Shown in pieces: positions 1,473 to 32,000 of a DNA stretch of 32,000 bases; position 1 is the first letter of the stretch; each line of letters starts with the position of its first letter. Source of the DNA: an uncultured Chloroflexia bacterium (GTDB lineage: Bacteria; Chloroflexota; Anaerolineae; Anaerolineales; Anaerolineaceae); assembly GCA_963704755.1 (NCBI GenBank), contig OY969938.1:1050001-1082000 (forward strand). The letters are read 5' to 3'. Below the pieces are notes generated by a model. That model was given only the letters and a program-made list of their open reading frames with translations, was not told the DNA's origin and did not search any database. A program made the translations under genes and the position numbers.

Positions 1473-1517
1473 GCCGGCACCTTCCCCTTGATTTTTCCTC
1501 AAGGAAAAGGCACCGGC
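1473..1517 (-). terminator. Intrinsic-terminator-like hairpin between the ABC permease and the kinase gene
   Basis: 19-nt arms at 1473-1491 and 1499-1517 around a 7-nt loop. The four non-Watson-Crick positions are G-U wobbles only in the minus-strand RNA; they are C-A or A-C mismatches on the plus strand. On the minus strand the hairpin is followed by GTTTTGT. Confidence 0.5.
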
Positions 1518-1582
1518 ATGCAATAATGTGTATCTGGATTTCAAAGATAAACCTGCTTGAGCATGTGGAAATGCTGCCCGGC

Positions 1583-2860: not shown

Positions 2861-2957
2861 GATTTAATTCCTCTTTTTCAGAACCTCGGGAAAAAGCAGG
2901 GGCATTATCGCCAGGCCTCACCTGCTCAACCTTTCGGAAAACCGTTTTATCCAATCC

Positions 2958-3899: not shown

Positions 3900-4010
3900 T
3901 GCAATCCCTTTCACGAACAAGTTATCGACGTTCACAGGATAGCCCCGAACGGGTCACCTCCGTTAGTCCGCATCGTCACCTGCCGGTCATATGACTTTTT
4001 AGGATAGATT

Positions 4011-8361: not shown

Positions 8362-8418
8362 TCCAAAGCTCTTTGGTGGTTTCGGTTCACTAAATCTAAG
8401 GCCGAGGGTTCACGCCGT

Positions 8419-11413: not shown

Positions 11414-11421
11414 ACATCCTG

Positions 11422-13984: not shown

Positions 13985-14002
13985 AAGGACTTGAATTGTT
14001 TT

Positions 14003-15268: not shown

Positions 15269-15269
15269 T

Positions 15270-18077: not shown

Positions 18078-18089
18078 CAGGTAAATCCT

Positions 18090-18986: not shown

Positions 18987-18990
18987 TATT

Positions 18991-19051
18991 GCGGATGTCC
19001 TAAACACAAAGAGAGCGGATAATCCGCTCTCTTTGTGTTTAGGACATCCGC
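18991..19051. repeat. 61-nt perfect palindrome (30-nt arms, single central A) immediately after the cysK-like stop
   Basis: GCGGATGTCCTAAACACAAAGAGAGCGGAT A ATCCGCTCTCTTTGTGTTTAGGACATCCGC, checked base by base. It starts 5 nt after TGA 18984-18986. There is no U-tract after it. Confidence 0.85.
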
Positions 19052-19108
19052 CAGCGATGTACCTCAACGATGGACGAATCCTGAGAGTGTCGAAAAACGC
19101 CTTCATAT

Positions 19109-19546: not shown

Positions 19547-20572
19547 ATGACCAAACACCCAACCCTCTTTATTACCCAACGCGGGCAATACCACCAACAG
19601 GCTGCCCTGGATGCAGCCCCGGCCGACCTGGACGTGACCATGATGCGGGCGCCTTCCAAGGAGGAAATAATTTCCCTCCTGCCCGGTAAAGAATTTTTGA
19701 TCACCGAACGGGCCGGCGTCATCGACGCAGACATCATTCGCGCCGGCAAGGATCTGCGCCTGATCCAACGCTTAGGCTCGCAAACCCACGACATCGACCT
19801 GGACGCGGCCCAGGCAGCGGGCATTCCGGTCTGCTATCTGCCAATCCAGACCTGCATCATGGTTGCCGAGCACCTGCTCATGCAAATGCTGGGCCTGGCC
19901 AAACGATCCCCAGAGATGATGCGCATCGTGATGAGCGCCGAAAATTTCGGTCACGAGCCCACCCGCTGTAATGAAGATACATTTGCCTATAACTGGTCCG
20001 GCCGGGAAGATATCCGTGGTTTGTGGAAGTCAACGGTGGGAATCCTGGGGATGGGTGAAATTGGTTTTGAATTGGCCCGCCGCCTGCGCAACTTTGGCTG
20101 CAAGGTTATTTACAACAAACGCAACCGCCTGCCTGCTCACGCCGAACGCGAGCTGAATGTAAGCTATGCCACCCGCGAAGAACTGCTGGCCGCCAGCGAT
20201 TTCGTCTGCATCCTCTTGCCTCTGCTCAAAGAGACCGAGCAAAGCCTGGACGAAAAATTCTTTGCCAGCCTGAAACCCGGCGCAATTTTTGTCAGTTCCG
20301 GTGGCAGCGGCGTCATCGACGAAAACGCCCTGGCCGGAGCTATTTCTTCCGGCAAGTTGTATGGCGTCGCGGTGGACAATTTCACCTATGAACCGATCCG
20401 CCCGGATTGCCCTCTGCTTGCTCCAGCCGCTCGCCCGGACACGAACGTGATCTTGACCCCCCACACCGCCGCGGGCACCGTGCCGGTGGTGGACAAAGAC
20501 CTGCGTATCGATGATTACCAGAACCTGACCAGGCTCCTCAACAACGAAGAGCTTGAATTTCGTTTGGTATAA
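19547..20572 (+). CDS. D-isomer-specific 2-hydroxyacid dehydrogenase (phosphoglycerate/glyoxylate reductase-like), NAD(P)-binding
   Basis: 341 aa. Rossmann motif GILGMGEIGFELARRL, then the catalytic-region pattern ending in LTPHTAAGT. Confidence 0.88.
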   Translation: MTKHPTLFITQRGQYHQQAALDAAPADLDVTMMRAPSKEEIISLLPGKEFLITERAGVIDADIIRAGKDLRLIQRLGSQTHDIDLDAAQAAGIPVCYLPIQTCIMVAEHLLMQMLGLAKRSPEMMRIVMSAENFGHEPTRCNEDTFAYNWSGREDIRGLWKSTVGILGMGEIGFELARRLRNFGCKVIYNKRNRLPAHAERELNVSYATREELLAASDFVCILLPLLKETEQSLDEKFFASLKPGAIFVSSGGSGVIDENALAGAISSGKLYGVAVDNFTYEPIRPDCPLLAPAARPDTNVILTPHTAAGTVPVVDKDLRIDDYQNLTRLLNNEELEFRLV

Positions 20573-20972: not shown

Positions 20973-22595
20973 TCAGGTCAGGAAAGTGATTTCCTCAGCC
21001 GGGCCAACCGGTGCATTTTCCGGTTTACCGCCGGCCATCAAGAAGCCGATCCGGTTCAGGTTCGTCTCGGCAGCCGGCCGCGTCTCGCTGATCTGGCCTT
21101 CGTAGATGACGCTGATCACATCGCTTAGGGCCATAATCTCGTCCAGTTCGGAAGAGATGATTAGCACCGCGCAGCCGCGGTCGCGCGCTTCGACGATCTG
21201 CTTGTGGATAAACGAGGCCGCCCCAACATCCAACCCACGGGTCGGCTGCATAGCCACCAGCACGGTTGGGTCGCACCACAGCGAGCGGGCCAGAATGACT
21301 TTCTGCTGGTTTCCGCCGGAAAGCTTTTTCGTTTCCATCGTGGGGTCCGGCGCGCGGATGTCGAATTTTTCCATCAGCGCTTCGGCATGTTCGTTCATCA
21401 CCTTGAACTGGCGCATCCCTTTTTTGGCATACGGCGGGCGCTCATAATTCTCCAGCAGCAGGTTATCGGTGATGCTCATTCCCAGCACCAGGCCTTCAGT
21501 CTGCCGGTTTTCCGGGATCAGCTCGATCCCGGCCATGATCCGTTTAGCCGTTTCCAACTTGGATATGTCTTCATCGCGGTAGATGATTTTTCCCGATTCC
21601 AGCCCGTGCAGGCCCATCATCGTCTGGACAAGCATTTGCTGGCCGTTGCCATCCACGCCTGCCAGGCCATGAATTTCACCGGCCTTGAGGCCCAGGTTGA
21701 GCCCGTTTAATTTCAAAGTGCCCAGTTCATCTCTGGCAGATGCGTCGCGCAATTCCAGGGTAATTGCCCCACTCTTGCACGGGTTTTTAGCGACGGTCAA
21801 GTCAACGGCCTGGCCAACCATCAATTCGGCCAGTTCGAAAGTGGTGGTATTACAGGTGTTCACCGTCTGGATGACCTTACCGCGGCGCATAACCGTAACC
21901 CGGTCGCTGATATGCAGCACTTCCTTCAGCTTGTGGCTGATGAAGATAATGGTCACCCCATCTTCGCGCAGCTTTTGAATCAGCTTGAACAGCTCTTCGG
22001 TTTCCTGGGGGATCAGCACTGCGGTGGGCTCGTCCAGGATGAGGATACGCGCACCGCGATACAGGGCCTTGATGATCTCCACTTTCTGCTGTTGGCCAAC
22101 GGTCAGCTCCCCGACCAGCCTCGTCAGGGGAACATTAAGGCCAAAATCATCCGCCAGAACCTTGGCTTTACTCAAGGCCTGGTCCAGGTCCAACAGGGGA
22201 TATTGTTTAGACTTCAACCCCAGGATGATGTTTTCGATCACCGAGAAGGTTGGGATGAGCATGAAATGCTGGTGCACCATTCCGATTCCCAGGGCGGTTG
22301 CATCCTGGGGAATATGAATTTGGGCCTTTTTACCGCGTACAAAAACTTCGCCTTCGTCCTTCTGGTACAGGCCATAGACGACTTTCATCAAGGTGGATTT
22401 ACCCGCCCCGTTTTCGCCTAACAGCGCGTGGACTTCGCCAGAATAGATCTCCAAATCGACGTGGTCGTTAGCGACGACACCCGGGAATTTCTTGGTGATC
22501 CCTTCCATCTTCAAAACGACATCCCGGCCTTCGGTCGAAAAAACCTGGTCACCGTTGATGGGTTCGGGGTTGATTTCAGTAGTCATTTCGCTCAT
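20973..22595 (-). CDS. ABC transporter ATP-binding protein with two ABC cassettes (BMP/nucleoside-sugar type, NupO/RnsA-like)
   Basis: 540 aa. First cassette: GENGAGKST, LTVGQQQKVEI, ILILDEPT. Second cassette: GVDGNGQ, LSGGNQQKVILAR. It is the last gene of the operon. Confidence 0.9.
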   Translation of the reverse strand: MSEMTTEINPEPINGDQVFSTEGRDVVLKMEGITKKFPGVVANDHVDLEIYSGEVHALLGENGAGKSTLMKVVYGLYQKDEGEVFVRGKKAQIHIPQDATALGIGMVHQHFMLIPTFSVIENIILGLKSKQYPLLDLDQALSKAKVLADDFGLNVPLTRLVGELTVGQQQKVEIIKALYRGARILILDEPTAVLIPQETEELFKLIQKLREDGVTIIFISHKLKEVLHISDRVTVMRRGKVIQTVNTCNTTTFELAELMVGQAVDLTVAKNPCKSGAITLELRDASARDELGTLKLNGLNLGLKAGEIHGLAGVDGNGQQMLVQTMMGLHGLESGKIIYRDEDISKLETAKRIMAGIELIPENRQTEGLVLGMSITDNLLLENYERPPYAKKGMRQFKVMNEHAEALMEKFDIRAPDPTMETKKLSGGNQQKVILARSLWCDPTVLVAMQPTRGLDVGAASFIHKQIVEARDRGCAVLIISSELDEIMALSDVISVIYEGQISETRPAAETNLNRIGFLMAGGKPENAPVGPAEEITFLT

Positions 22596-22600
22596 GATTT

Positions 22601-23659
22601 TTACCCTTCTTCCTGGAAAGGCGCCCCACTGGCTGACGGTGCGCGGGCGTTGCGCATCAAAGCTACCAGAGCGATCAGGGTAACCACGTAGGGCAGCATC
22701 AACAAAAGTTGGTACGGCACGTGGATTCCATAAGCCTGTAAGCGGATCTGGAGGGCATCCCCCAAACCGAACAGCAGCGTTCCCAGAAAAGCACCAACCG
22801 GGTTATAGCGGCCGAACACCACCGCGGCAAAGGCGATAAACCCACGGCCGGCCGAGAGGTTTTCCTGGAAAGCATTGATCCCCGAAGCACTGACCAGCGC
22901 GGAACCGCTTATGCCGGCGATCGCACCGCTGATCAACACCGCGATGTAGCGCACCCGGTTGACATTGATTCCAACCGTGCTGGCGGCCATGGGGTGCTCG
23001 CCGACGGAACGCAGGGTCAGCCCCCAGGATGTTTTGTAGAAGATAAACGACATGACCGGGATCAACAACAAAGCCAGGTAAACGATGATGTTGTGCGAGA
23101 AGAACGCTTTGCCCACGTAAGGCAGGTCACTTAAGATTGGGATATGGATAGCCTGAAAACCAGGGGCCGAAACGAAGGCCTGGTTGACGTAAAGCAGCCG
23201 GTAGCCCAGGGCAGTTGCGGCCATGGCAAACAGGTTAAGCGCCACAGCACTGACGATCTGGTTGCTGCGCAGGGAGATCGAGAAAACGGCGTGAATCAGG
23301 CCGACCAGCATACCGGCGATGGCTGCGGCTATCAGTCCCACCCAGGGACTGCCGCCGCGGTCCGAAGCCGCGTAAGCCACGAACGCACCGATGAGCATCA
23401 TCGATTCGAGCGCCATATTCAGCACACCCGAAAGCTCACTGACCAGGCCACCCAGGGCGGCCAGCAAAAGGGGAGTCATGGCGATCAAGGCCGCCCGAAC
23501 GAATTCGGGGGCTACCAGGATATCGAGAATACTATCCAGTGTATCACGGGTTTTTCCGCCTACCATTTGCAAGGCAAGCCCAATGATCACCAGCGCACCG
23601 ATAAAGATCAGGAGTTTACGAACACTACTGCGGGCAAAGAACTGTTTTAGTTTTACCAT
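22601..23659 (-). CDS. ABC transporter permease (BPD_transp_2 type, NupQ/RnsD-like)
   Basis: 352-aa polytopic ORF. Its start overlaps the upstream permease stop by 7 nt (ATGGTAA). Confidence 0.88.
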   Translation of the reverse strand: MVKLKQFFARSSVRKLLIFIGALVIIGLALQMVGGKTRDTLDSILDILVAPEFVRAALIAMTPLLLAALGGLVSELSGVLNMALESMMLIGAFVAYAASDRGGSPWVGLIAAAIAGMLVGLIHAVFSISLRSNQIVSAVALNLFAMAATALGYRLLYVNQAFVSAPGFQAIHIPILSDLPYVGKAFFSHNIIVYLALLLIPVMSFIFYKTSWGLTLRSVGEHPMAASTVGINVNRVRYIAVLISGAIAGISGSALVSASGINAFQENLSAGRGFIAFAAVVFGRYNPVGAFLGTLLFGLGDALQIRLQAYGIHVPYQLLLMLPYVVTLIALVALMRNARAPSASGAPFQEEG

Positions 23660-24756
23660 TTTCGATCTTCTCCCTGTAGTTTGCGGGCGATTTCCACAAT
23701 CTTCGGAGAGGATGCAGCCAAAACGGCCAGAATCGCCAGTACACGCACCAGGTCAACTAACTGAGCAGGCAGCTTGGCGATTGCTTCCATAGCAACTGCC
23801 CCTGTCTGAAGACCGGAGAAAAACAACGCGGACAGGCCAACGATGAAGGGCTCAAAACCACCCAACAACGCCACCGCAATAGCGTCATAACCCGTATTGG
23901 GTGCGAAACCAGAAATCAACCGGGTCTGGTAACCCAGGATTTCAGAGGCTCCGGCCAGGCCAGCCAGCGAACCGCTTATAAAGAAAGCTAATAGGAATAC
24001 CTGATCTGAACGAATACCCGCATGGAAAGCAGCAACCGGGTTTTGCCCGACGATGCGCACTTTTTGTCCCAGGGTGGTATAGCGCATTACAAAGAACATG
24101 ATCAGCATGGCCACAACCGCGATCACCAACCCCAGGTGCAATTGCGTATGTGGGATCAGTTTAGGATACATCGTGTTGCTCACCACCGGCCATGAGGTTG
24201 GCGCATCCGTGTGCCCGCCGGACTTGATCGGCCCGGAGACCATGTAATCAACCAGGTAAATCCCGATGTAGTTCAAGAGAATAGTGGAAATAATTTCGTT
24301 AGACCCGTAGCGTATCTTTAGAAACGCGGGGAACAATGCCCACAACCCGCCGGCAACAAAAGCCGCCAGGGTGGCTAAAAGCATATGTAAAGGACCAGGC
24401 AGATTTGGAAACTTGCCAGCCACGATAATCGCGGCTAATGCGCCTGCATACATTTGCCCAACTGCACCGATATTGAACGCTCCCGCTTGAAAAGCAAATG
24501 CGATTCCCAAACCGCATAATAAAAGCGGGACGGCTGTTTTCAATGTCTCAGATGTTTGAACGAGATTCCCAAACGAACCTTGCCAAAGTGCTTGATAGGC
24601 CGTAATCGGGTCGAAACCCATGAGGATCATGATAACGGCACCGATAAGAATTGCTATGAGAATCGACAATAAAGGCAATCCAATACTTGCAAAGGGCAGA
24701 CTAAACCTGGCTTTCTGCTTCAATGGTCTTAGAGTCTCGCTAAATTCTTCCGACAT
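23653..24756 (-). CDS. ABC transporter permease (BPD_transp_2 type, NupP/RnsC-like)
   Basis: Polytopic ORF. I prefer ATG 24756 (MSEEFSETLRPLKQKARF...) with GGAGAA 6 nt upstream. The track TTG 24819 would read through the GC hairpin at 24786-24808. Confidence 0.86.
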   Translation of the reverse strand: MSEEFSETLRPLKQKARFSLPFASIGLPLLSILIAILIGAVIMILMGFDPITAYQALWQGSFGNLVQTSETLKTAVPLLLCGLGIAFAFQAGAFNIGAVGQMYAGALAAIIVAGKFPNLPGPLHMLLATLAAFVAGGLWALFPAFLKIRYGSNEIISTILLNYIGIYLVDYMVSGPIKSGGHTDAPTSWPVVSNTMYPKLIPHTQLHLGLVIAVVAMLIMFFVMRYTTLGQKVRIVGQNPVAAFHAGIRSDQVFLLAFFISGSLAGLAGASEILGYQTRLISGFAPNTGYDAIAVALLGGFEPFIVGLSALFFSGLQTGAVAMEAIAKLPAQLVDLVRVLAILAVLAASSPKIVEIARKLQGEDRKW

Positions 24757-24785
24757 AAAAGTTCTCCAGGCTTCCGTGAGACGAA

Positions 24786-24808
24786 GGGTGCGGGGCAGGC
24801 CCGCACCC
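24786..24808 (-). other. GC-rich intra-operon hairpin between the binding-protein gene and the first permease gene
   Basis: GGGTGCGGG (24786-24794), loop GCAGG, CCCGCACCC (24800-24808). There is no U-tract on the transcribed (minus) strand, so it looks like an mRNA-stabilising or processing hairpin rather than a full terminator. Confidence 0.5.
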
Positions 24809-24828
24809 TTTTCAATCAAAACAATTAA

Positions 24829-25899
24829 TTATTGAGATATAGTGAAGCTTAGTTTGCCAGCCAGGTAATCGTTGATGGCGGACTGAACTTTGTCCTGAAC
24901 ATCCTGGGGAACGAAGTCGCCCCATTGGCCCATCTTCTGGGTGCCTTCAGCGAAACCGCTGATGAAGGTGGTGTTCCCTTCCAGTTTACCGGCCAGGAAC
25001 TGCTGAGCAACTTCCATGTACACACCGGGGATATCCTGGACGCCGCTGGTGATGACGGTATCGGGAGCCAGCGCGTAGTTATCGCCACTCCAACCGCCGA
25101 TGACCATTACGCCACTGTCCTGGGCCAGTTTGATGGCCGGAGGAGTGAAGGCATCGCCCATGATGACGAGAACATCGACACCGCGGTCGATCTGGGCCTG
25201 AGCAACCTGCTGGCCCTTGACCACATCGTCCCAGGAACCCACGAAGGAAACGTTCACATCAGCGTCGGGATTGACAGCCAGGGCGCCAACCGAAATGTTG
25301 TCGGAATCGGCAGTAACCTGGGGAGCATCTTCAGCAGCCACGACACCGATTTTATTGTTTTTGGTCATCAAACCGGCAGCCATACCAGCGAAGTAACCCA
25401 GCTCACCGAATTTGAAGTTGGTACCAACAATATTGTTGCCGGCCGTGGTGGCGTTGATCTGGACGAACATGATGTTCGGGAAATCCGGAGCAACAGCAGT
25501 CAGAGCATCACCCCATTCATAACCATGAACGAAGATGAGGTCATAACCTTGTTGCGCATACTGGCGCAGCACGTTCTGCTGCTGGGCAGCGGCTACATTT
25601 TCGGAATAAGCCATTTCCCAACCGAGTTTGTCGTGGATTTCCTGGACGCCTTCCAGAGCTAACTGGTTCCAACCATGATCGTTGGTCGGGCCCGAGGTAA
25701 CCATGGCCACTTTGTAGGTTTTACCCTCAGCGGTCGGCACAGCCGTGGAATTCGACAATGCCAGGGTCGGTTGTGCAAGGCTTGCGACTGTGGGAGCAAC
25801 AGCTTCTTGCGTCGGGGTAGCTGCCTGCGAGCAACCAAACATAGCGATCGCAGCAATTACGAAAATCAGCGAAAGTTGAACCAACTTGTTGAATTTCAT
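24829..25899 (-). CDS. BMP-family (Med/PnrA/TmpC-like) ABC substrate-binding lipoprotein
   Basis: Signal peptide with lipobox AMFGC, then an A/P/T-rich linker. MVTSGPTNDHGWNQ is the BMP-type motif. GGAGAGAGA RBS on the minus strand directly upstream of the ATG. Confidence 0.9.
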   Translation of the reverse strand: MKFNKLVQLSLIFVIAAIAMFGCSQAATPTQEAVAPTVASLAQPTLALSNSTAVPTAEGKTYKVAMVTSGPTNDHGWNQLALEGVQEIHDKLGWEMAYSENVAAAQQQNVLRQYAQQGYDLIFVHGYEWGDALTAVAPDFPNIMFVQINATTAGNNIVGTNFKFGELGYFAGMAAGLMTKNNKIGVVAAEDAPQVTADSDNISVGALAVNPDADVNVSFVGSWDDVVKGQQVAQAQIDRGVDVLVIMGDAFTPPAIKLAQDSGVMVIGGWSGDNYALAPDTVITSGVQDIPGVYMEVAQQFLAGKLEGNTTFISGFAEGTQKMGQWGDFVPQDVQDKVQSAINDYLAGKLSFTISQ

Positions 25900-26317
25900 T
25901 CTCTCTCCTATTTTCAGGTTTTGTAAAATTGGGAATTCATTGTCGTGGAATAATATGCAACCACTATCCAGCTAACCAGTTTCCAGCTAAAACGAGTTAA
26001 ACCCTCTCTCTTAATTTATCCGTGTAGCCTCCTTGAATTAAGATATGATTTCACCCGTGCGAATATCGCGGTTTGACAAGAGCTGCCTCTATACAAACCT
26101 GCTGCTGAATTCGATCCGTTGTTCCTCGGTTGTTGTTCTTAACCATGGGCAGTAAAATTTACACAAAGCTCTTACTGATAAACAAGCGGTTACCAGGGAA
26201 AACCACCCCATTTTCCGGAAGGTTAGGAATTTTGAATTTTTATTCTTCGTTTCAGTGGAATAACCTGATTTTAGCAAAAACAAATACATCTGTCAACCAC
26301 AAGTTTACACTTGTAAT

Positions 26318-26723
26318 CTATATGTTAATTGATAAATTATTTACTGAACAGTAATTTACCGTTTTTGCCGAAGATTTCCAAAACCCCATCCAATTCTCGC
26401 AGTAGAGGGTCCACCAGGAATAGTCCTCAACCCAGGCCCGGCCCATCATAGCGGGGCAATCCGGTCGATTTCCCCATATATTTTGGACAATGGCCTGGAA
26501 AAAGTCTTTTCGGAGTGAACAGGTTGTAAATATGCACATTGGGCGATTCGATGGTGCCCATATTATCAGGAATATTCCAATTCAGGTAGTTATTTATAGG
26601 AAAATACGCCCGTTCTTTGCACTTTTGTAAAATTTCCAAGAATCGAGGGGCAAGGTTACTTTTCAGCGCCGGGTAAAAGCCTATTCGTGCCATCACCCGA
26701 TTGTCCAAATCAATTTGTTCCAT
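26318..26723 (-). pseudogene. Possible frameshifted remnant of a small gene of unknown function
   Basis: Two overlapping minus-strand ORFs in adjacent frames (26427..26723 and 26318..26539) both read protein-like. They could be joined by a 1-nt shift near the A5/T5 runs at about 26509-26520 (GGAAAAAGTCTTTTCGG). The region is AT-rich. No family recognised. Confidence 0.3.
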
Positions 26724-26759
26724 TTTGAAACACGCTGCCGGCGCGCACCCTCATCCCAA

Positions 26760-26815
26760 CCTTCTCCCTCGCTGGAGAAGGCGGAAAACAATTTCCGGCT
26801 TTCGAAGCCGGAAAT
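26760..26815. other. Two adjacent short hairpins
   Basis: First: CCTTCTCC CTCGCT GGAGAAGG (26760-26781). Second: ATTTCCGGCTT TCG AAGCCGGAAAT (26791-26815). Confidence 0.6.
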
Positions 26816-27132
26816 ACGCCGGACTATCAATCGTTCGTCAATTCACCAGGCTGACAATGGTGTTCCTCGCCCAAATTGGCATTAATTCCGCCCACCTACC
26901 CGCTTCAAGTACCATTGCTCGATCATAAATATGCCAAATGTCATAATTGAAGCAGGATTAAGAGTTGTTTAGAATGAATAATGCGTTTTAATGTGGCTTA
27001 ACTATTTTCAGGCCGGCACGCATAAGAACGCTTCCCTTTGGTTCCACTCCATCGATATAAGAAAACCTGGATAGATCAATTTCTTTTTAGCTCAGGTTGC
27101 ATGCAGCATGCAGGAAAGCTCAGGCGAACTTC

Positions 27133-28113
27133 ATGATCCCTCAAATTCCTTTCCCCATCGAGAAATTACGCCTCAATCTGCTTTACCAGGATCCCATCGA
27201 ACTGGAAAAAGCTAAGGCCAGCTCGGCTGCGTCCAAGTCGCTTTCCAAAGTCAGTGAAGCCTACCATGACTTATACTTCCCCGCCCCCGCCGAGGACCGG
27301 CCATATATTTTCGCCTCGATGGTCCTCTCGCTGGACGGGAAAATGGCCTTCCCCGACAATCCCCAGGGACCGGTGGTCGCTTCGGCCAATGCCATCGACC
27401 GCGAAGGCGGGCTGACCGATTTTTGGGTCCTGAATGTGCTGCGTGCCTACGCCGACGCGATCGTGGTCGGGGCGCGCACCCTCCAATCCGAGCCGGATGC
27501 CGTCTTCTCCTGCCTGGACCACGATTTGCTGGCCGAGCGCAAAGACCTCCTGGGCAAACAACGTGAATGCCCGCTGACTATCGTGGTTTCGCTGGATGGG
27601 CAGGACATTCCCCTTAATCATTCTATTTTCTCCGTCCCTGAAGTCCAAACAATACTGGCCACCTGCCATCGCGGTGGCCAGTATTTGCAATCTCAATGTG
27701 GATCGGATGCCATGTTGATCGGCCCCTTCAACGCTATCACTGATATCGATACCGTCGAGCTGCTCCGCCAGGTCAAACAAGGTTTCCGGGCCCACAAGAA
27801 AATCGTCCTGATGACCGGCGAAAACGAACCGGACGCCCGGGTGCTGATGTACTGTCTGCGTAAAATCGGCGTTGGGCACCTGTTGATCGAATCACCGACC
27901 TACATGTGGCTCTTGATGGGCCAGGCCATGCTGGACGAATTCTTCGTCGATTACTCGACCCTTTTCATCGGCGGGTTGTTCACCCCCGGTTACAACAACG
28001 GCTTTACTTCCCTGAGCCACCCGCACAGCCGCTTCCTGGTCATCGCCATGCACCAGCACAGCTTCCTGTTCACCCGCCAGAAACTTATCTACGGCCTATC
28101 CACTCAGTCCTGA
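27133..28113 (+). CDS. RibD C-terminal domain (pyrimidine reductase / DHFR-like fold) family reductase, without a deaminase domain
   Basis: PYIFASMVLSLDGKMAFPDNPQGPVVASANAIDREGGLTDFWVLNVLRAYADAIVVGARTL is a typical RibD_C core. There is an N-terminal extension of about 60 aa and no cytidine-deaminase-type zinc motif. The start is ATG 27133, with TTG 27097 less likely. Confidence 0.8.
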   Translation: MIPQIPFPIEKLRLNLLYQDPIELEKAKASSAASKSLSKVSEAYHDLYFPAPAEDRPYIFASMVLSLDGKMAFPDNPQGPVVASANAIDREGGLTDFWVLNVLRAYADAIVVGARTLQSEPDAVFSCLDHDLLAERKDLLGKQRECPLTIVVSLDGQDIPLNHSIFSVPEVQTILATCHRGGQYLQSQCGSDAMLIGPFNAITDIDTVELLRQVKQGFRAHKKIVLMTGENEPDARVLMYCLRKIGVGHLLIESPTYMWLLMGQAMLDEFFVDYSTLFIGGLFTPGYNNGFTSLSHPHSRFLVIAMHQHSFLFTRQKLIYGLSTQS

Positions 28114-28138
28114 TCCCGGCACAGCCAAAGGAGTTGCC

Positions 28139-29557
28139 ATGGAAAATGTTGATCTGATTATCAAAAACACAACCATCGTCACGATGGATACCGCTACCTC
28201 CATCCTGCCAGACCACGCAATCGCGGTCAAAGGCAGCAACATCATCGCCATCGAGCCCAGCGCGAGCCTGCTCGAAAAATACACCGGCGCCAAAGTCATT
28301 GACGGGATCGACCGCTTTGTCTTTCCGGGTTTTGTCAACACCCACACCCACCTGTTCCAGAATGGGCTCAAGGGCCTGGGGCGAGACAAGCTTTTGTTCG
28401 ACTGGCTGGACAGTTCCGTCCGCCGCGCGCTGCGTGAAATTCGCTATGAGGATGTGTACAACGCGGCCGTCGCCGGCTGCCTGGAAAATATCCGCAGCGG
28501 CGCGACCACTGTGCTGGATTACATGTACGCTCATGGCAGCCAGTTAAGCCTGGACGATGCCGTCATTCAGGCCTTCGAAGATACCGGTATCCGCGGCATT
28601 TTGGGGCGGGCCCACACCAAGACCGAATTCTTGCCCAAAGGCAGCGAATGTGAGATCAACGAGACCGAAGATATGTTCTTCGCAGATGTTGACCGCCTGA
28701 TGGCAAAATTAGCCGGCAACGGCAGGATCTCGCTAGCCATGGCTCCCGGCATCATTTGGGATATGAGCGAAGAGGGTTACCGCCAACTCCGCCGCTATGC
28801 GGATAAATACGGCATCCGCATAACCATGCACCTGGATGAAACCGGCGAGGACGACGAATTTGCCCTGAACAAGTTTGGCGTCAACGCTGCCGAATTACTG
28901 GACCGCAACGGTGTGCTCGGCGAAGATTTTATCGGGGTTCACCTGGTCCACCTCGACCCGAAAACCATCGAGCTCTTGCAGAAACGCCAGGTCAAGGTCT
29001 CGCACAACCCGGTTTCCAATATGATCCTGGCTTCTGGGGTCGCCCCCATCCCGCACCTGTCCGAACTCGGGCTGGTGATCGGCCTGGCGACCGACGGCGC
29101 CGCCAGTAACGATACCCAAAACATGCTGGAAGTGGTCAAAACCACTGCCATCTTGCATAAATGCATCCAGCGGGATGCAACTCTCTTCCCCGCCATCGAG
29201 GTGTTGAAAATGGCCACCATCGGCGGCGCCCGTGTGGCCGGCCTGGACCACGAGATCGGCTCGATCGAGGTCGGCAAGAAGGCCGACTTCTTCCTGTTCA
29301 ATCCGCGCAACGTGGCCTGCGTCCCGGTAGCCGATCCGATTGCTTCCCTGGTGTACTCGGCCAATCCCACATCCATCGATACGGTCGTTATCCACGGCCA
29401 GGTCGTCCTGGAAGACGGCCAGTTCCGCACCGTGAATGAAGAAAACGCCGTCTACGCCTTGCAAGATTCGGCTTTTCGCCTGCGGCAGCGGGTTGGCCTG
29501 GGCTGCCAGATCAACGGCCAGGAAATAACCGTCGGGCCATTCCACAAACAGGCTTAG
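28139..29557 (+). CDS. Amidohydrolase-superfamily deaminase/chlorohydrolase-like enzyme (COG0402: guanine deaminase / MTA-SAH deaminase / TrzA-AtzA group)
   Basis: 472 aa. Metal and catalytic motifs FPGFVNTHTHLFQ (HxH), ITMHLDET (HxxE), GVHLVHL and GLATDGAASN. AAAGGAG RBS 5 nt upstream. Confidence 0.88.
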   Translation: MENVDLIIKNTTIVTMDTATSILPDHAIAVKGSNIIAIEPSASLLEKYTGAKVIDGIDRFVFPGFVNTHTHLFQNGLKGLGRDKLLFDWLDSSVRRALREIRYEDVYNAAVAGCLENIRSGATTVLDYMYAHGSQLSLDDAVIQAFEDTGIRGILGRAHTKTEFLPKGSECEINETEDMFFADVDRLMAKLAGNGRISLAMAPGIIWDMSEEGYRQLRRYADKYGIRITMHLDETGEDDEFALNKFGVNAAELLDRNGVLGEDFIGVHLVHLDPKTIELLQKRQVKVSHNPVSNMILASGVAPIPHLSELGLVIGLATDGAASNDTQNMLEVVKTTAILHKCIQRDATLFPAIEVLKMATIGGARVAGLDHEIGSIEVGKKADFFLFNPRNVACVPVADPIASLVYSANPTSIDTVVIHGQVVLEDGQFRTVNEENAVYALQDSAFRLRQRVGLGCQINGQEITVGPFHKQA

Positions 29558-29668
29558 TGCTTTCCCGGAATTCTCTTTTCGATCCAGGCGCTATCTTTCA
29601 CCAGCCGTGATTCTACAAAGATGCGCTTACCTGACCGGGGGAGGCCCCCACAGAAAATCGAGGCTTCT

Positions 29669-30358
29669 ATGACCCAATTGAACCCATTCGAACAATCGCT
29701 CGAAATCGAAGCTCGCCGCCCATTTTTGAGCAAAGGCGAGTATGTCTATCGCTTGTTGAAAGAAAAAATTGTTAACGGATACCTGGAACGGAACAAAATC
29801 TACACCGTGGTAGAAATCGCCGAAAGCCTGGGCGTCAGCCGGACACCCGTCGGCAAGTTGGTCAAGATTTTGGCTTCCCAGAACTACGTCATCCAGTTCC
29901 CAGGGGTTGGCTTCAAAGTCAAGGAACTGACCATCGACGATATCCGCGAGACCTTGATCATTTCTGGTGCGTTGGAAGAAGCTATTCTGCACAAGATCGT
30001 CAAAGATGGCAAATCGCTGTCTGCCAACCTGAAGGAAGCCATGCGCAACACCTGGTCGGCTTTCGAGGAGCAGGCGCCCGAGCTGTACACGCAGGCTTCC
30101 GCAGACTACCACAAAGCCCTGTATGCGCTCTCGGGCCTGCACCGCGTGACCGAAATCTTGAGTGAAAACATCCTGGCGCACGAGATCTGGTACCGCGAAG
30201 GTGCCATCCGCTACCCCGAACTGATTAAAAAAATGATCCTCGATCACGAGGCGATCCTGGATCTGATCCGTCACCGCGAGGACCAAAAAATTAACGGCGT
30301 AATTGCAGCCCATGTCGAAAACTGCGAGCAAGTTTTAATCAAAGTCATCAAGGATTGA
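29669..30358 (+). CDS. GntR-family transcriptional regulator with an FCD (FadR-like) C-terminal domain
   Basis: The wHTH is YTVVEIAESLGVSRTPVGKLVKILASQNYVIQFPGVGFKV. The helical C-terminal domain carries His residues (ADYHKALY, DHEAILDLIRHRE). ATG 29669 is preferred over the track start 29621. Confidence 0.85.
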   Translation: MTQLNPFEQSLEIEARRPFLSKGEYVYRLLKEKIVNGYLERNKIYTVVEIAESLGVSRTPVGKLVKILASQNYVIQFPGVGFKVKELTIDDIRETLIISGALEEAILHKIVKDGKSLSANLKEAMRNTWSAFEEQAPELYTQASADYHKALYALSGLHRVTEILSENILAHEIWYREGAIRYPELIKKMILDHEAILDLIRHREDQKINGVIAAHVENCEQVLIKVIKD

Positions 30359-30434
30359 ACCGTGGTATTTAAACCTTGTTACAGTTCAGCAGGACTTGAT
30401 CGGTAATTCAAATTTACTTTCCAAGGAGTCCGAA

Positions 30435-31166
30435 ATGAAACGCTTTCAAGATAAGGTCGCGATCGTAACAGGCGCCGGTAGAGGACTGGGGGCTCAATAT
30501 GCCAAGGACCTCGCGCGAGAAGGGGCTGTCGTTGCTATCTGGGATATCAACGCTACCAACCTGCAAAAAGTCAAGGAAGAGATCGAATCTGAGGGGGGAC
30601 GGGTGGTCACCTCGACCACCGATATCACCGATTTCAGCCAGGTTGAAGCCGCCGTTGCCGAGATCGTCCGCCAGTTCGGCAAAGTGGATATCCTTATCAA
30701 CAACGCGGCATATCACAAGGCCCAATCGGTCTTCGAAACCTCGGTCGAGGATTGGAAGAAACAGATCGACACCAATTTGAATGGCTCTTTTTATTGCACC
30801 AAAGCCGTCCTGCCTTATATGTTAGAGAAACAATACGGAAAAATCTTGAACATCGCCTCGGCGGCGGCCAAAGTTTATTTCCCCGGTTTTGGCGCCTATT
30901 CGGCCTCCAAAGCAGGCATTATTGGGTTTTCGAACGTCCTCTCCGAAGAAGTCAAATACAAAAATATCAACGTCAATTCCGTGTACCTGGGGATGACCAA
31001 CACCGAGTACACCCGCGAGCGGATCGGCAGCGATCCTTCCGTCACCATTTCGCTCAACGAAATGATGCAGCCGCCGGAAGTAGCGAAAGTGGTCCTCTTC
31101 CTGGTTTCGGACGAAGCCGCCCCCATCAAAGGCGCAGCCGTTGACGTATTCGGAAACCGCTATTAG
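30435..31166 (+). CDS. Short-chain dehydrogenase/reductase (classical SDR, FabG-like)
   Basis: TGAGRGLG cofactor motif, NNAA, and the catalytic S...YSASK. AAGGAG lies 7 nt upstream of ATG 30435. The track start 30396 is rejected. Confidence 0.9.
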   Translation: MKRFQDKVAIVTGAGRGLGAQYAKDLAREGAVVAIWDINATNLQKVKEEIESEGGRVVTSTTDITDFSQVEAAVAEIVRQFGKVDILINNAAYHKAQSVFETSVEDWKKQIDTNLNGSFYCTKAVLPYMLEKQYGKILNIASAAAKVYFPGFGAYSASKAGIIGFSNVLSEEVKYKNINVNSVYLGMTNTEYTRERIGSDPSVTISLNEMMQPPEVAKVVLFLVSDEAAPIKGAAVDVFGNRY

Positions 31167-31177
31167 GAGCGCAAAGC

Positions 31178-32000
31178 GTGAAAACATCTATCAACAAACT
31201 AGCCGTCAAAGTCGTCAAAGAGATCATCGCCCGCGAAGATGAGATTGGTGTCAAAGTCATCCACATGAACTGCGGCGCAACCCTGATCGACATGGGCCTG
31301 AACGTCAAGGGAAGCAACGAAGCCGGGCTCCTCTTTACGCGGGTCACCCTGGGCGACATGGCCACCGTCAACCTGGGCACCTGGAAGCTGGACGACGACT
31401 ACATCTTCGGCTCGGTCGAGCTGTTCGTCACCGAGCCGCTGGTCGCCTGCCTGGCCTCGCAAATCGCCGGCTGGCAACTGGGCAGCGGTGAATTCGCCAC
31501 CATTGGCTCCGGCCCGGCCCGGGCCCAGGCCGTCATTCCCAGCGATTATTACCTGGACATGACCCCCTACCGCGACCGCAACGACGAAGTAGTGCTGTGT
31601 ATCCAGGATATCCGCTATCCGGACGATGCGATCGCCCTGGAAGTGGCCCAGGCCTGCAAAGTGGCGCCCGAAAACGTGTACCTGTTGATTGCACCCAGCG
31701 CCTCGATTGTAGGCTCGATCCAGGTCTCGGCCCGCATGATCGAGGAAGTCTGCCACAAGATGCACGAAAAGGGCTTCGACGTCTCCAAGGTGATCAATGC
31801 CCGCGGCCGCACGCCGGTCGCCCCGCTGGTAATGGACGAGGTCAAGGCCATCGGCCGCATCAATGACGCCATTCTGTACGGCGGCGACACCGAGTTCTGG
31901 GTGGACGCCAGCGACGAAGAAATCGCCGCGGTGGTCGAAAAACTGGTTTCCAAAACGTCATCCCCCTATTACCCCGAGTTGTTCGGGGTGGTGTTCGAGC
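31178..32000 (+). CDS. Methenyltetrahydromethanopterin cyclohydrolase (Mch) family protein, function here probably different (3' end outside the window)
   Basis: Absent from the ORF track. GTG 31178 has AGGAG 8 nt upstream, and 274 codons are open to the window end. The translation contains GATLIDMG, EAGLLF, EPLVACLASQIAGWQL, ATIGSGPARAQ, APENVYLLIAPSASIVGSIQVSARMIEEVCHKMHEKGFD, PVAPL and AIGRINDAILYGG. These match the conserved blocks of Mch as I remember them from methanogens and methylotrophs. Confidence 0.8.
   Translation, partial: MKTSINKLAVKVVKEIIAREDEIGVKVIHMNCGATLIDMGLNVKGSNEAGLLFTRVTLGDMATVNLGTWKLDDDYIFGSVELFVTEPLVACLASQIAGWQLGSGEFATIGSGPARAQAVIPSDYYLDMTPYRDRNDEVVLCIQDIRYPDDAIALEVAQACKVAPENVYLLIAPSASIVGSIQVSARMIEEVCHKMHEKGFDVSKVINARGRTPVAPLVMDEVKAIGRINDAILYGGDTEFWVDASDEEIAAVVEKLVSKTSSPYYPELFGVVFE

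Follow-up and report, generated by a model that had tools for sequence, protein, structure and literature searches.

Mch-type enzymes, whose native substrate is a tetrahydropterin, are to our knowledge otherwise known only from methane and C1 metabolism. The COG0402 family includes the pterin and isoxanthopterin deaminases, the pteridine, sepiapterin and dihydropteridine reductases are SDRs, and a pyrazine ring, when opened, gives a 1,2-dicarbonyl, which an acetoin- or PDH-type complex working with an SDR would naturally accept. A precedent for pairing a reductase with a hydrolase is found in YgfK/UacX and SsnA, which are encoded by adjacent genes (PMC12507026), and pteridines enter Cupriavidus via purine/pyrimidine-type permeases (PMC12391406). 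The window (the whole 32,000-nucleotide stretch of DNA analysed here) covers the left-hand portion of a gene cluster that is conserved in anaerobic bacteria of several phyla and, as a preliminary description of this DNA had supposed, we found no published pathway combining its genes in full-text searches of the literature or in the Pfam, NCBIfam and Rfam libraries.

The leftward arm, read previously as a Bmp-type ABC importer transcribed from 25899, indeed comprises four genes with significant family matches: an ATPase with two fused ABC_tran domains (20973-22595, minus strand; PF00005 twice, E 2.6e-49; 78% identical to its counterpart in loci L002 and L005), two BPD_transp_2 permeases (22601-23659 and 23653-24819, both minus strand; PF02653, E 2e-38 and 8.6e-44; the start codon of the second is uncertain) and a Bmp-family substrate-binding lipoprotein (24829-25899, minus strand; PF02608, E 3.4e-53) with a lipoprotein-type (lipobox-type) signal peptide, MKFNKLVQLSLIFVIAAIAMFGC. 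The solved relatives nearest to this protein are Med (2hqb), the Brucella BMP (3s99) and AtzT (6pi5), the last two of which we take to be base-type binders, whereas PnrA/TmpC (2fqw), which binds nucleosides, and 4iil, which binds riboflavin, are far more distant. The operon was found again in relatives in divergent, upstream and downstream arrangements; importers are present in all loci, an NCS2, MFS or EamA carrier standing in place of the Bmp ABC system in other species. A D-isomer-specific 2-hydroxyacid dehydrogenase gene (19547-20572, plus strand; 2-Hacid_dh_C, E 1.7e-40), whose best NCBIfam matches are of the PGDH and glyoxylate/hydroxypyruvate reductase types, all below cutoff, is probably a member of the locus as well, since its orthologues (70-76% identical) hold the same place next to the ABC ATPase gene in L059-L068, with others located downstream of LplA in L006, L007 and L010. 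Thus, the genes named previously between 20973 and 32000 are in place, but that extent was too short, both on the left, where it omitted the dehydrogenase, and on the right, where the Mch gene is cut by the window end and the locus is incomplete.

The rightward set, starting at 27133, likewise matched the families assigned to it (RibD_C-like, COG0402-type, FCD-GntR, SDR and Mch-like), though the earlier listing of the enzymes does not follow the map, on which RibD_C comes first and Mch last. The mechanical ORF starts at 27097, 29621 and 30396 are too early: in a contig that is nearly identical (L001, 5031/5034 bases), the gene calls begin at 27133, 29669 and 30435. The first gene (27133-28113, plus strand) encodes a RibD_C-like (Rib7-fold) NAD(P)H reductase (PF01872, 31.4 bits against a cutoff of 24.1) that scored far below cutoff with the NCBIfam pyrimidine-reductase equivalogs (41.7 vs 184). 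Its AlphaFold2 model (pLDDT 95) has Rib7/RibD reductases as top structural matches, led in Foldseek by M. mazei Rib7 and including Rv2671-pteridine complexes; archaeal Rib7 is its closest relative in both structure and sequence, and the S-x-D-G-K motif is invariant. The protein belongs to a small dedicated subfamily, with only 114 90%-identity clusters found among 5.8 billion proteins, which in the contexts examined lies either in the cluster or beside recurrent sugar-handling genes.

The second gene (28139-29557, plus strand; Amidohydro_1, E 1.8e-63) encodes a COG0402-type metal amidohydrolase, in whose translation the HxH and HxxE motifs are visible and whose top PDB matches are AtzA, MTA/SAH deaminase and 8-oxoguanine deaminase. 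It reached no NCBIfam equivalog cutoff (best 293 vs 609), being an orthologue of neither SsnA (180 vs 444 bits) nor guanine deaminase (148 vs 375 bits), and by analogy with SsnA it may cleave a ring hydrolytically instead of deaminating it (PMC12507026). The reductase and amidohydrolase genes form an accessory module, which co-occurs in 23 of 43 genomes (adjacent in 21, in both gene orders) and is missing from several otherwise complete loci (L002, L003, L018, L020-22). They are followed by a gene for a GntR-family regulator with an FCD effector domain (29669-30358, plus strand; GntR E 2e-8, FCD E 8.6e-9), the position of which is kept in type I loci.

A classical SDR oxidoreductase (30435-31166, plus strand; adh_short, E 6e-61), which scores against butanediol/acetoin-type models and lies directly upstream of Mch1 in 39/43 loci, precedes the Mch-like cyclohydrolase paralog 1, or Mch1, of which the window holds residues 1-274 of 320 (31178-32000, plus strand; PF02289, E 7e-87; full-length protein, P0001). 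Mch1 is 43% identical to M. kandleri Mch and, even as a fragment, exceeds the TIGR03120 cutoff (267.5 bits against 228.8). The catalytic pair, Arg183 and Glu186, is invariant in the Mch-likes, and the active-site Lys94 is replaced by Ile in all cluster-linked Mch1 and nearly all Mch2 paralogs. Among the recurrent neighbour families annotated there were no H4MPT C1 genes and no riboflavin genes. The hosts of this Mch include C. difficile-labelled genomes, Oscillospiraceae and Spirochaetes, and with them taxa for which we know of no H4MPT synthesis. This pattern suggests that the cluster Mch is a repurposed hydrolase.

Conservation was assessed in 43 independent genomes with this Mch type, from Chloroflexota, Bacillota (including C. 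difficile-labelled genomes) and Spirochaetota. SDR, Mch1 and E1α are contiguous in 39 of them, and the Mch-like, COG0402 and RibD_C-like genes, a trio whose co-conservation the preliminary description had proposed as a check, occur together in 23, in three or four phyla and in variable order. Since the SDR-Mch1-E1α contiguity and the reductase-amidohydrolase adjacency persist, and the Bmp ABC genes recur, the genes form a unit under selection. The list of five functions given previously missed the most conserved part of this unit, the complex, and a frequent second Mch: the invariant core is the SDR, Mch1 and a thiamine/lipoyl E1αβ-E2(-E3) complex, which in relatives lies directly downstream of Mch1, often with the second Mch paralog. 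Accessory genes in relatives encode this paralog or else a hydroxylase of XDH type, permeases for nucleobases and hydrolases of ureides. No E1, E2, Mch2 or XDH gene lies within the window and, on the near-identical contig, the 81 nt that follow the stop codon of Mch1 contain a terminator-like hairpin and no E1α start; the Mch1-E1α adjacency is therefore only putative in this genome. An orthologue of E1α that shares 89% identity with the L005 protein is found on what is putatively the same contig. Loci of the cluster carry their own E3 along with the lipoylation genes LplA, LipA and LipB. E1 is as similar to ordinary PDH as to acetoin dehydrogenase, so that the complex could serve plain pyruvate oxidation.

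Upstream of the Bmp operon, a promoter-like site (TTGACA-17-TAAAAT with TG; 26268-26296, minus strand) was recognized by consensus match only, at 11/12 positions, and its -35 element is kept in L002, L005 and L011. The palindrome palB (ACAAGT-TTAC-ACTTGT, 26299-26314) abuts this -35 and has two-mismatch variants in the corresponding position of L005 (5768) and L011 (3455), with a similar sequence in L002. The 15-bp palindrome palA (TGCATGC-A-GCATGCA, 27098-27112), found once in the window, recurs in exact copies just ahead of the operon's first gene in L002, L005, L010 and L011, whether that gene is RibD_C or GntR; for a fifth exact copy, in L009, the gene downstream is unassigned. One- or two-mismatch variants precede GntR in L003 and L018-22, which are Clostridia loci, and also in L006, L007 and L013-16, palA at the operon start being common to two phyla, Chloroflexota and Bacillota. 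It is probably the operator of the enzyme operon, and presumably the site of FCD-GntR.

The N-heterocycle theme proposed earlier agrees with the genes that recur in relatives: an XdhA-like Mo hydroxylase with FeS and FAD subunits (16 loci), a pbuX-like NCS2 permease (8 loci), a dihydropyrimidinase equivalog (L005-7; 508 bits, above the cutoff of 393) and YgeY, PydA/UacX-like and OTCase-like proteins (L047, L044 and L050). Mch2 is paired with a sarcosine/opine-oxidase-like set, and XDH occurs in 2/17 loci with Mch2 versus about 13/18 without it, so that the two are mostly alternatives, although this alternation is confounded with lineage. An FGGY kinase, DeoC-type aldolase, TIM-barrel isomerase and Zn-ADH, present in about 12 of some 60 loci, point to a sugar or polyol moiety, beyond a simple base model. 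Corrinoid methyltransferase sets also occur in some loci and lie outside the model proposed here.

We judge it slightly better than an even chance that this is a modular catabolic cluster of strictly anaerobic fermenters, whose substrate would be a small pyrimidine-fused N-heterocycle, a pteridine/lumazine or a purine, and whose pathway would end in acyl-CoA. A catabolic, substrate-induced character is suggested by the ever-present importers, the regulators (GntR/FCD, GntR/UTRA and LacI types across loci), the conserved palA and the clusters' own E3 and lipoylation genes. The chemistry, which we infer from gene content, would begin with uptake via the Bmp ABC system, after which the RibD_C-like reductase and the COG0402 amidohydrolase, as a coupled pair, would dearomatise or reduce the ring before hydrolysing or deaminating it. 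Import followed by deamination, reduction and ring opening, as put forward earlier, is a candidate order. The SDR would generate a cyclic C=N or a carbonyl, and the Mch-likes, which retain the water-activating Arg/Glu pair of true Mch, are proposed to open the ring by hydrolysing a cyclic C=N (amidine or imine). An alpha-dicarbonyl, alpha-hydroxyketone or 2-oxoacid fragment would then be cleaved oxidatively by E1αβ-E2-E3 to acyl-CoA, probably acetyl-CoA, and the remainder handled by the 2-hydroxyacid dehydrogenase, by Mch2 with the sarcosine/opine-oxidase-like set (or the XDH-type hydroxylase) and by ureide hydrolases, with FCD-GntR repressing the operon at palA until the substrate or an intermediate is bound. 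We lean slightly towards a pteridine over a purine, given the pterin links of Mch, COG0402 enzymes and SDRs set out at the start, the entry of pteridines into Cupriavidus, the dicarbonyl expected from a pyrazine and the alternation of Mch2 with XDH, RibD_C-fold proteins also being known to bind dihydro- and tetrahydropteridine rings (Rv2671, 4xt4, 4xt6); no riboswitch or ligand clue naming the substrate was found.

A purine-specific route, starting from hypoxanthine, xanthine, guanine or a methylated or oxidised purine, seems to us rather unlikely. Once the ring was reduced, the two Mch-likes would open the formamidine positions C8 and C2, XDH would hydroxylate one of these in species without Mch2, and the central C3 unit would become a 2-oxoacid (pyruvate, hydroxypyruvate or ureidopyruvate) oxidised by E1E2E3. 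Such a route would account for the alternation of Mch2 with XDH and for a 2-hydroxyacid dehydrogenase of glyoxylate/hydroxypyruvate-reductase type; moreover, XdhA-like and pbuX-like genes share an operon in C. difficile-type loci, purines are far commoner nutrients than pteridines, and in L047 the cluster is linked with YgeY-, UacX- and OTCase-like genes, which belong to the reductive uric acid pathway (PMC12507026). Yet the amidohydrolase is no guanine deaminase or SsnA orthologue, a PLP lyase for pyruvate is absent (the neighbouring PALP genes are of the housekeeping sort: TrpB, ThrC and CysK-like), and 14 loci from Bacillota and others, in which purine riboswitches are common, yielded none. 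We know of no purine-acting precedent in the RibD_C, Mch or SDR families.

The kinship with archaeal Rib7, motif included, would also suit a ribityl- or ribosyl-amine heterocycle (6,7-dimethyl-8-ribityllumazine, 5-amino-6-ribitylaminouracil or a ring-opened nucleoside), which we consider improbable. Here the RibD_C-like enzyme, like Rib7, would act where sugar and amine are joined, hydrolysis of both C=N bonds of the pyrazine by Mch1 and Mch2 would give diacetyl or acetoin, the SDR (with its butanediol/acetoin-type scores) and an acetoin-dehydrogenase-type complex would yield acetyl-CoA, and the kinase, aldolase and isomerase, which with the Zn-ADH adjoin RibD_C-like genes in L035, L064, L082 and L083, would use up the pentose or pentitol. 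Riboflavin binding is known among Bmp proteins (4iil), but the window protein is far closer to 3s99 and AtzT; the sugar genes are confined to the minority of loci given above, C. difficile-type operons use an NCS2 nucleobase permease without sugar genes, and the candidate compounds are rare in nature.

That the cluster makes or salvages a pterin- or flavin-like cofactor or a secondary metabolite appears very improbable: Mch, RibD_C and SDR proteins are most familiar from the making of cofactors and from cofactor-dependent metabolism, and salvage had been allowed for earlier, but high-affinity importers, substrate-responsive regulators, a complex that makes acyl-CoA and releases NADH, and XDH-type hydroxylases, dihydropyrimidinase and carbamoyltransferase-type ureide enzymes are present, while ligases, synthases and export functions do not recur. 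Finally, a chance housekeeping neighbourhood (true H4MPT Mch, riboflavin reductase, nucleobase deaminase, nucleoside importer and, in relatives, ordinary PDH), in line with the source annotations (Mch, pyrimidine reductase, PDH), the Mch equivalog score and an E1β above the PDH subfamily cutoff (328 vs 321), is scarcely credible and largely refuted by the neighbourhood analysis, given the contiguity across phyla despite rearrangements, the palindrome accompanying the operon, the Lys94 replacement, the tiny RibD_C-like subfamily and its contexts, and the hosts and neighbour families described above.

If the cluster does serve heterocycle catabolism, Mch copies of the methane/C1 type and a pyruvate-dehydrogenase-like complex would be used for anaerobic heterocycle breakdown, in a pathway of which we found no description. 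Its adjacent reductase and amidohydrolase parallel YgfK/UacX with SsnA, and may also be likened to dihydropyrimidine dehydrogenase with dihydropyrimidinase. Only the Mch-like protein reaches the cutoff of a characterised equivalog and, while it has the Arg/Glu pair in common with true Mch, it differs from it in the active-site Lys and in gene context.

The layout of the locus, as proposed in the preliminary description, was borne out by an ORF listing combined with HMM scans. The leftward operon encodes a complete Bmp/PnrA-type importer, with a Bmp-family binding protein carrying a lipoprotein-type signal peptide (24829-25899), two BPD_transp_2 permeases (23653-24819 and 22601-23659) and a tandem-domain ABC ATPase (20973-22595). 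Across an AT-rich spacer of 1.2 kb, the rightward set comprises a RibD_C-like protein (27133-28113), a COG0402-type amidohydrolase (28139-29557; PF01979, E 1.8e-63), a regulator harboring both GntR and FCD domains (29669-30358), a classical SDR (30435-31166) and an Mch-family gene that begins at 31178 and runs to the window end, where the first 274 of its 320 codons are covered. The earlier list of these enzymes was correct in content, though not in map order. Start codons were taken from gene calls on L001, a near-identical contig (5031/5034 identical to the window), as the mechanical ORF starts at 27097, 29621 and 30396 were too early. Upstream of the locus, and without relation to it, lie a histidine kinase with an ABC-2 exporter (149-3935) and a polysaccharide biosynthesis block (6157-17035: Wzz/tyrosine-kinase-like protein, flippase, Wzy-like polymerase, group 1 glycosyltransferases and a DegT-type aminotransferase), followed by a plus-strand CysK-like PALP gene (18090-18986, E 1.7e-67). 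The latter is the real gene of an overlapping pair, its partner being the longest ORF (18015-19106, 363 codons, minus strand), which has no family match. We also assigned to the locus, as a putative member, the 2-hydroxyacid dehydrogenase gene at 19547-20572, because a related cluster arrangement described below carries a transporter and a dehydrogenase 70-81% identical to those of the window.

The Bmp protein was nearest to Med, the Brucella BMP protein 3s99 and AtzT, and far from the nucleoside and riboflavin binders. NCBIfam matches to a 'putative B6 ABC transporter' and to 'pyridoxal 4-dehydrogenase' fell far under cutoff and were uninformative.

The spacer between the two gene sets carries a probable regulatory site. 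A perfect 15-bp palindrome, palA (TGCATGC-A-GCATGCA, 27098-27112), lies 21 nt before the start of the RibD_C-like gene and is the only copy in the window. Exact copies were found just 5' of the first operon gene in four related loci (L002, L005, L010 and L011), be it RibD_C or GntR, and a fifth in L009, without an assigned downstream gene; variants with one or two mismatches lie 5' of GntR in Clostridia (L003, L018-22) and in L006, L007 and L013-16. Since the palindrome accompanies the FCD-GntR gene across two phyla, Chloroflexota and Bacillota, it is probably the operator of this regulator. A second palindrome, palB (26299-26314), abuts the -35 element of a near-consensus leftward promoter and is kept in L002, L005 and L011, where 140-290 bp separate it from palA, compared to ~800 bp in the window. 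The difference reflects an extra segment of ~0.5-0.65 kb within 26330-27095, which contains an orphan 98-codon ORF without family match (26427-26723, minus strand) and a hairpin with an 11-bp stem (26791-26815), and which matched nothing elsewhere in the window or the loci. A riboswitch, sought as a clue to the ligand, was not found at the Rfam gathering threshold in the window and 14 related loci, and the 1.2-kb control region itself gave only chance-level Rfam matches.

To assess how far these genes travel together, one genome per species was scanned, yielding 77 distinct loci, among them C. difficile-labelled genomes, Pseudoflavonifractor, Oscillospiraceae, Halanaerobiales, Sediminispirochaeta, Sphaerochaeta and a 'Fusobacteria' MAG. 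The closest relatives of the full-length Mch-like protein (P0001) are labelled Anaerolineae or Chloroflexia, and more distant ones carry the labels Clostridia, Bacillota, Spirochaetia and Christensenellaceae. Proteins of the window and neighbors from L002 were compared to all loci by tblastn, all ORFs were clustered, and counts were made over the 43 independent loci that have a first-type Mch paralog (Mch1) and sufficient flanks. Mch1 was directly preceded by an SDR in 39 of the 43 and directly followed by the E1α gene of a thiamine/lipoyl complex in 41, with both neighbors in place in 39/43; E1β and then a lipoyl E2 come after E1α. The RibD_C-like gene was present in 24 of these loci and the amidohydrolase in 28; 23 have both, adjacent to each other in 21, and the pair occurs in both gene orders, upstream in the window and L005-7/10 and, in C. 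difficile-type loci, downstream of E2. Position varies for the Bmp ABC genes as well: they are divergent in Chloroflexi, upstream and co-directional in L013-16 and downstream in L070, L077 and L082. As the linkage is kept despite such repeated rearrangement, the cluster constitutes a functional unit, and the co-conservation that would be expected of the locus first described is indeed seen over the 43 loci. That description took in only part of the unit, however: the invariant core is SDR-Mch1-E1α-E1β-E2, and the RibD_C-like and amidohydrolase genes fall outside it, both being absent from the otherwise complete L002, L003, L018 and L020-22.

Around this core, several further genes recur: E3 (22 loci); the lipoylation genes LplA, LipA and LipB; a second Mch paralog (Mch2) after E2, 44-45% identical to Mch1; an XdhA-like molybdenum hydroxylase (XDH) with FeS and sometimes FAD subunits (16 loci); pbuX-like NCS2 permeases (8 loci); a sarcosine/opine-oxidase-like DAO/Fer2_4/Pyr_redox set; a flavodoxin-like protein; a TIGR03792-family protein; and, in L005-7, a dihydropyrimidinase equivalog. 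Type I clusters, to which the window belongs, read GntR(FCD)-SDR-Mch1-E1αβ-E2-Mch2, and type II clusters read [NCS2]-XDH-SDR-Mch1-E1αβ-E2-amidohydrolase-RibD_C-E3-TIGR03792. A third arrangement, found in some Anaerolineales, lacks SDR, E1 and E2 and places the Bmp ABC and 2-hydroxyacid dehydrogenase genes opposite RibD_C, amidohydrolase, Mch2 and the DAO set. XDH was present in 2/17 loci with Mch2 compared to ~13/18 without it, a difference that is confounded with lineage and suggests, with the two mostly mutually exclusive, two routes for the same ring position, hydrolysis or hydroxylation. In two Halanaerobiales loci (L054 17319-20506 and L072 13833-16985), a second mini-unit of Mch, SDR and amidohydrolase genes lies downstream of the main cluster, an Mch-like gene once more paired with an SDR. 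In a Sphaerochaeta locus (L047 1620-20897), the cluster is fused with genes characteristic of reductive uric acid degradation, namely a YgeY equivalog, a PydA/UacX-like DHO_dh+Fer4 protein, an OTCase-like carbamoyltransferase and a second COG0402 amidohydrolase. Sugar-handling genes occur in about a dozen loci and corrinoid methyltransferase components in a few, where they adjoin the cluster (Halanaerobiales, spirochaetes and some Clostridia: L054 3078-8335, L044, L047, L050, L003, L018 and L020); the corrinoid sets consist of a B12-binding protein, a URO-D-like methyltransferase and a Pterin_bind protein. Together, the two gene groups may reflect decorated forms of the substrate, the corrinoid sets hinting at a methylated one.

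Mch is regarded as a signature enzyme of tetrahydromethanopterin (H4MPT)-dependent C1 metabolism, and the window's Mch-like protein would be given that name by annotation pipelines, as it exceeds the TIGR03120 cutoff (267.5 bits against 228.8, on the 274 residues up to the window end); it matches PF02289 with an E of 7e-87 and is 43% identical to M. kandleri Mch (1qlm). Arg183 and Glu186 (A. fulgidus numbering), which we take to be the catalytic pair of Mch following the A. fulgidus structural study of Upadhyay et al. 2012, were kept in all cluster-linked homologues aligned with two archaeal references. Segment 93-95 was altered from Gln-Lys-Ala to Gln-Ile-Ala/Gly/Ser in every cluster-linked Mch1 and nearly all Mch2 proteins, the Lys being limited in this alignment to the two archaeal sequences. 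None of the H4MPT C1 genes (fae, mtd, ftr/fhc, biosynthesis) was found among the annotated recurrent neighbor families, which cover most families recurring in at least four of the 77 loci (SDR, E1αβ, E2, E3, amidohydrolase, RibD_C, ABC/Bmp, XDH and others), and the hosts include clostridia and spirochaetes. The cluster proteins share fold, family and Arg183/Glu186 with the Mch of methanogens, sulfate-reducing archaea and methylotrophs, but differ from it in having Ile for Lys, two or three paralogs per locus, SDR and E1E2 genes as neighbors instead of fae, mtd and fhc, and fermentative anaerobes as hosts. A precedent exists in H4MPT-free haloarchaea, whose Mch homologue is without explanation and is listed as an open issue (PMC8305020).

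More divergent Mch homologues were also observed. A third paralog, ~28-32% identical, occurs in L021 (15613-17322), L022 (9611-11325), L042 (210-1948) and L064 (17108-18076) and carries His-x-Ala-Phe or Gln-Ala-Gly in place of Gln-Ile-Ala; in the first three loci the gene directly after it encodes 240 residues that match no more than parts of the MCH domain. Three Anaerolineae MAGs (L076, L080 and L081, ~10001-10970) encode homologues of 32-37% identity outside the cluster context, with Gln-Arg-His-Ala in the active-site segment and Asp replacing the catalytic Glu186, and these may represent another functional class.

The RibD_C-like protein was modeled by AlphaFold2 with a pLDDT of 95, and the best Foldseek match of the model was M. 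mazei Rib7 (E 6e-16, target-normalised TM-score 0.84); it also matched Rv2671, a RibD_C-fold protein crystallised with dihydro- and tetrahydropteridine rings. Three residues of the S-x-D-G-K motif (S66, D68 and G69) never vary, and K70 almost never does. The protein therefore shares both its fold (target-normalised TM-scores of 0.8-0.85) and this motif with the RibD C-terminal domain, archaeal and fungal Rib7 and Rv2671. It differs from the riboflavin-pathway reductases in its low identity (~23%), a 55-residue N-terminal extension, equivalog scores 4- to 5-fold under cutoff (best NCBIfam match 41.7 bits against 184; TIGR01508 36 against 186), the lack of rib genes among the annotated recurrent neighbor families and a very small subfamily, amounting to 114 clusters at 90% identity among 5.8 billion proteins. 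Its most distant relatives, 33-38% identical, were inspected in L082 (5145-20981) and L083 (6641-14187), and in both the gene adjoins an FGGY kinase and a DeoC-type aldolase. L082 is a cluster variant with a TIM-barrel isomerase, XDH, SDR, two Mch genes and a Bmp ABC system and without E1/E2 or amidohydrolase; L083 has a Zn-ADH and no Mch gene.

The amidohydrolase translation displays the deaminase-type motifs THTH, MHLDE, VHLVH and TDG, corresponding to the Amidohydro_1 metal ligands and HxxE. All equivalog models scored under cutoff, the best at 293 against 609 and the next at 292 against 522, followed by 8-oxoguanine deaminase (276 against 532), SsnA (180 against 444) and guanine deaminase (148 against 375), which places the protein, as judged from its sequence, outside the characterised COG0402 orthologous groups (guanine, 8-oxoguanine, pterin and MTA deaminases, AtzA and SsnA).

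The complex encoded downstream of Mch1 in the related loci has an E1 of the mitochondrial/AcoA-like PDH type. In common with acetoin and pyruvate dehydrogenases, it has a heterotetramer-type E1α/E1β, an E2 with lipoyl, E3-binding and catalytic domains, and E3 and lipoate ligase genes within the cluster; its operon also includes an SDR, two genes upstream of E1α, as butanediol/acetoin operons include one. It differs in that E1α scores under the PDH equivalog cutoff (314 against 394) and in that its genes, which lie outside the window, are set between Mch paralogs in a heterocycle cluster. An exact look-up of P0001 returned a single 5.2-kb contig that ends 81 nt past the Mch stop; the same look-up found no record of the SDR, the amidohydrolase, the RibD_C-like protein (P0121) or E1α (P0239). 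These 81 nt (L001 5175-5255, equivalent to positions 32141-32221, past the window end) contain no E1α start, compared to relatives in which E1α starts 18-24 nt downstream of Mch1; they hold a terminator-like hairpin (TGCCGC-ATTTTC-GCGGCA then ATTTTAAT) and match no repeat within the window or the loci. Nevertheless, an E1α orthologue attributed to the window's genome, 89% identical to that of L005, indicates that this genome has the complex, though perhaps in another position than in relatives.

To summarize, we regard the cluster as an inducible N-heterocycle catabolic operon with a previously undescribed combination of enzymes and a repurposed Mch; that it is a functional unit, and a novel one, is well supported, and we infer its substrate and chemistry. 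By analogy with the uric acid pathway, the RibD_C-like/amidohydrolase pair would reduce the imported ring and then hydrolyse or deaminate it. The oxidoreductase next to each Mch-like protein (the SDR beside Mch1, the DAO-type set beside Mch2) would create a cyclic C=N bond, which that Mch-like protein would hydrolyse, and E1E2E3 would turn the released alpha-dicarbonyl, alpha-hydroxyketone or 2-oxoacid into an acyl-CoA. This product is probably acetyl-CoA, as no dedicated CoA-transferase, thioesterase or kinase recurs.

A pteridine substrate would give each enzyme family a precedent: pterin deaminases are COG0402 members, some proteins of the RibD_C fold bind pteridines, the SDR family includes pteridine and sepiapterin reductases, Mch acts on a tetrahydropterin, and opening of the pyrazine ring would yield a 1,2-dicarbonyl. 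Cupriavidus, moreover, uses an XDH-type lumazine dehydrogenase and purine-type permeases for pteridines (PMC12391406). The main rival is a purine, in whose favor are its abundance as a nutrient and the physical linkage to uric-acid-pathway genes in L047; the NCS2, XDH and Bmp relatives cannot separate the two, as these families also serve in pteridine clusters. A diaminopropionate-lyase route to pyruvate was rejected, the PALP genes near the Clostridia loci being TrpB (585 bits) and ThrC, and that of the window (18090-18986) being CysK-like and not conserved. Returning to pteridines, we tentatively suggest, as a scheme that is rather unlikely to be right in full, that Mch was recruited and duplicated in fermentative bacteria as the ring-opening C=N hydrolase of the first anaerobic pteridine degradation pathway. 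Pterins or lumazines might be its substrates, perhaps in alkylated form and stemming from the folate, biopterin or methanopterin of decaying biomass. In this scheme, dearomatisation of the pyrazine ring would be the task of a RibD_C-fold reductase together with an SDR, hydrolysis of the two C=N bonds of this ring would fall to Mch1 and Mch2, and a dedicated, self-lipoylating, acetoin-dehydrogenase-like complex would make acetyl-CoA from the 1,2-dicarbonyl.

A well-conserved cluster without a described function could supply a missing piece of anaerobic nitrogen-heterocycle turnover, its carriers being gut Oscillospiraceae, C. difficile-labelled genomes, digester and sediment Anaerolineae, and spirochaetes. 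We know of no anaerobic fate for pteridines, and to our knowledge those of purines have been worked out only recently. If the proposal is true, the Mch fold gains a second function, and a lipoyl/thiamine complex of the 2-oxoacid-dehydrogenase type is dedicated to a specialised catabolic step, which is unusual in strict anaerobes. The Mch-like proteins would also be systematically misannotated, since by exceeding the NCBI equivalog threshold they receive the name methenyl-H4MPT cyclohydrolase, from which metagenomic studies can wrongly infer methylotrophy or C1 metabolism related to methanogenesis. The system is tractable, as several of the carrier organisms can be grown in culture, and ligands could be screened through the binding protein, the regulator and the candidate operator. 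A full-text search of open-access papers and bioRxiv, by literal-term matching, found no paper describing the cluster.

Among known systems, the E. coli and C. difficile cluster for reductive uric acid degradation encodes XdhD-YgfM, YgfK/UacX, SsnA, HyuA, YgeW/UacY, YgeY and YgeX, and its side-by-side reductase and COG0402-related SsnA dearomatise and then cleave the purine (PMC12507026). As we read it, the present cluster shares with it an anaerobic catabolic role on a fused N-heterocycle, an XDH-family enzyme, ureide-cleaving enzymes and, as a common end, entry of a C3 unit into central metabolism; both also pair a reductase gene with an adjacent COG0402-related amidohydrolase, the SsnA-type enzyme cleaving the ring after dearomatisation, to which we liken the present pair, and L047 physically combines genes of the two. 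However, the reductase here is of the RibD_C fold, neither YgfK nor PydA, and the amidohydrolase, at 180 bits against 444, is not an SsnA orthologue. The Mch-like hydrolases and the thiamine/lipoyl E1E2E3 core are absent from the uric acid pathway, and none of SsnA, YgfK/UacX, HyuA, YgeW/UacY, YgeY, YgeX or diaminopropionate lyase is encoded in the window, with YgeY-, UacX-like and OTCase-like genes confined to the spirochaete loci L044, L047 and L050.

Cluster I of Cupriavidus sp. LA-1, for aerobic pterin/lumazine degradation, comprises a pterin deaminase, a Mo lumazine dehydrogenase, a 6,7-dihydroxylumazine isomerase and a prFMN decarboxylase (PMC12391406). It resembles the present cluster in its nucleobase-type transporters, pterin-type deaminase, XDH-family hydroxylase, in-cluster regulators and, under the reading proposed here, pyrimidine-fused heterocyclic substrate, but its route is oxidative, funnels to xanthine and has no Mch-like, RibD_C-like, SDR or E1E2E3 component; conversely, neither an amidase-signature isomerase nor a UbiD-type decarboxylase was found among the recurrent families here. 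The phloroglucinol pathway, with its SDR reductase PGR and ring-opening dihydrophloroglucinol cyclohydrolase DPGC (PMC10470551), follows the same logic as the route proposed here, with dearomatisation or reduction by an SDR, ring opening by a hydrolase and acetyl-CoA as the end product. A phloroglucinol or polyphenol pathway was ruled out, however, as DPGC belongs to the Mn-dependent 'cyclase' family and not to Mch (PMC10470551); its substrate is carbocyclic, and TfD and TAL homologues are absent here. As a defining feature failed in each comparison, the cluster is distinct from the uric acid, aerobic pterin/lumazine and phloroglucinol pathways, from riboflavin biosynthesis and from H4MPT C1 systems.
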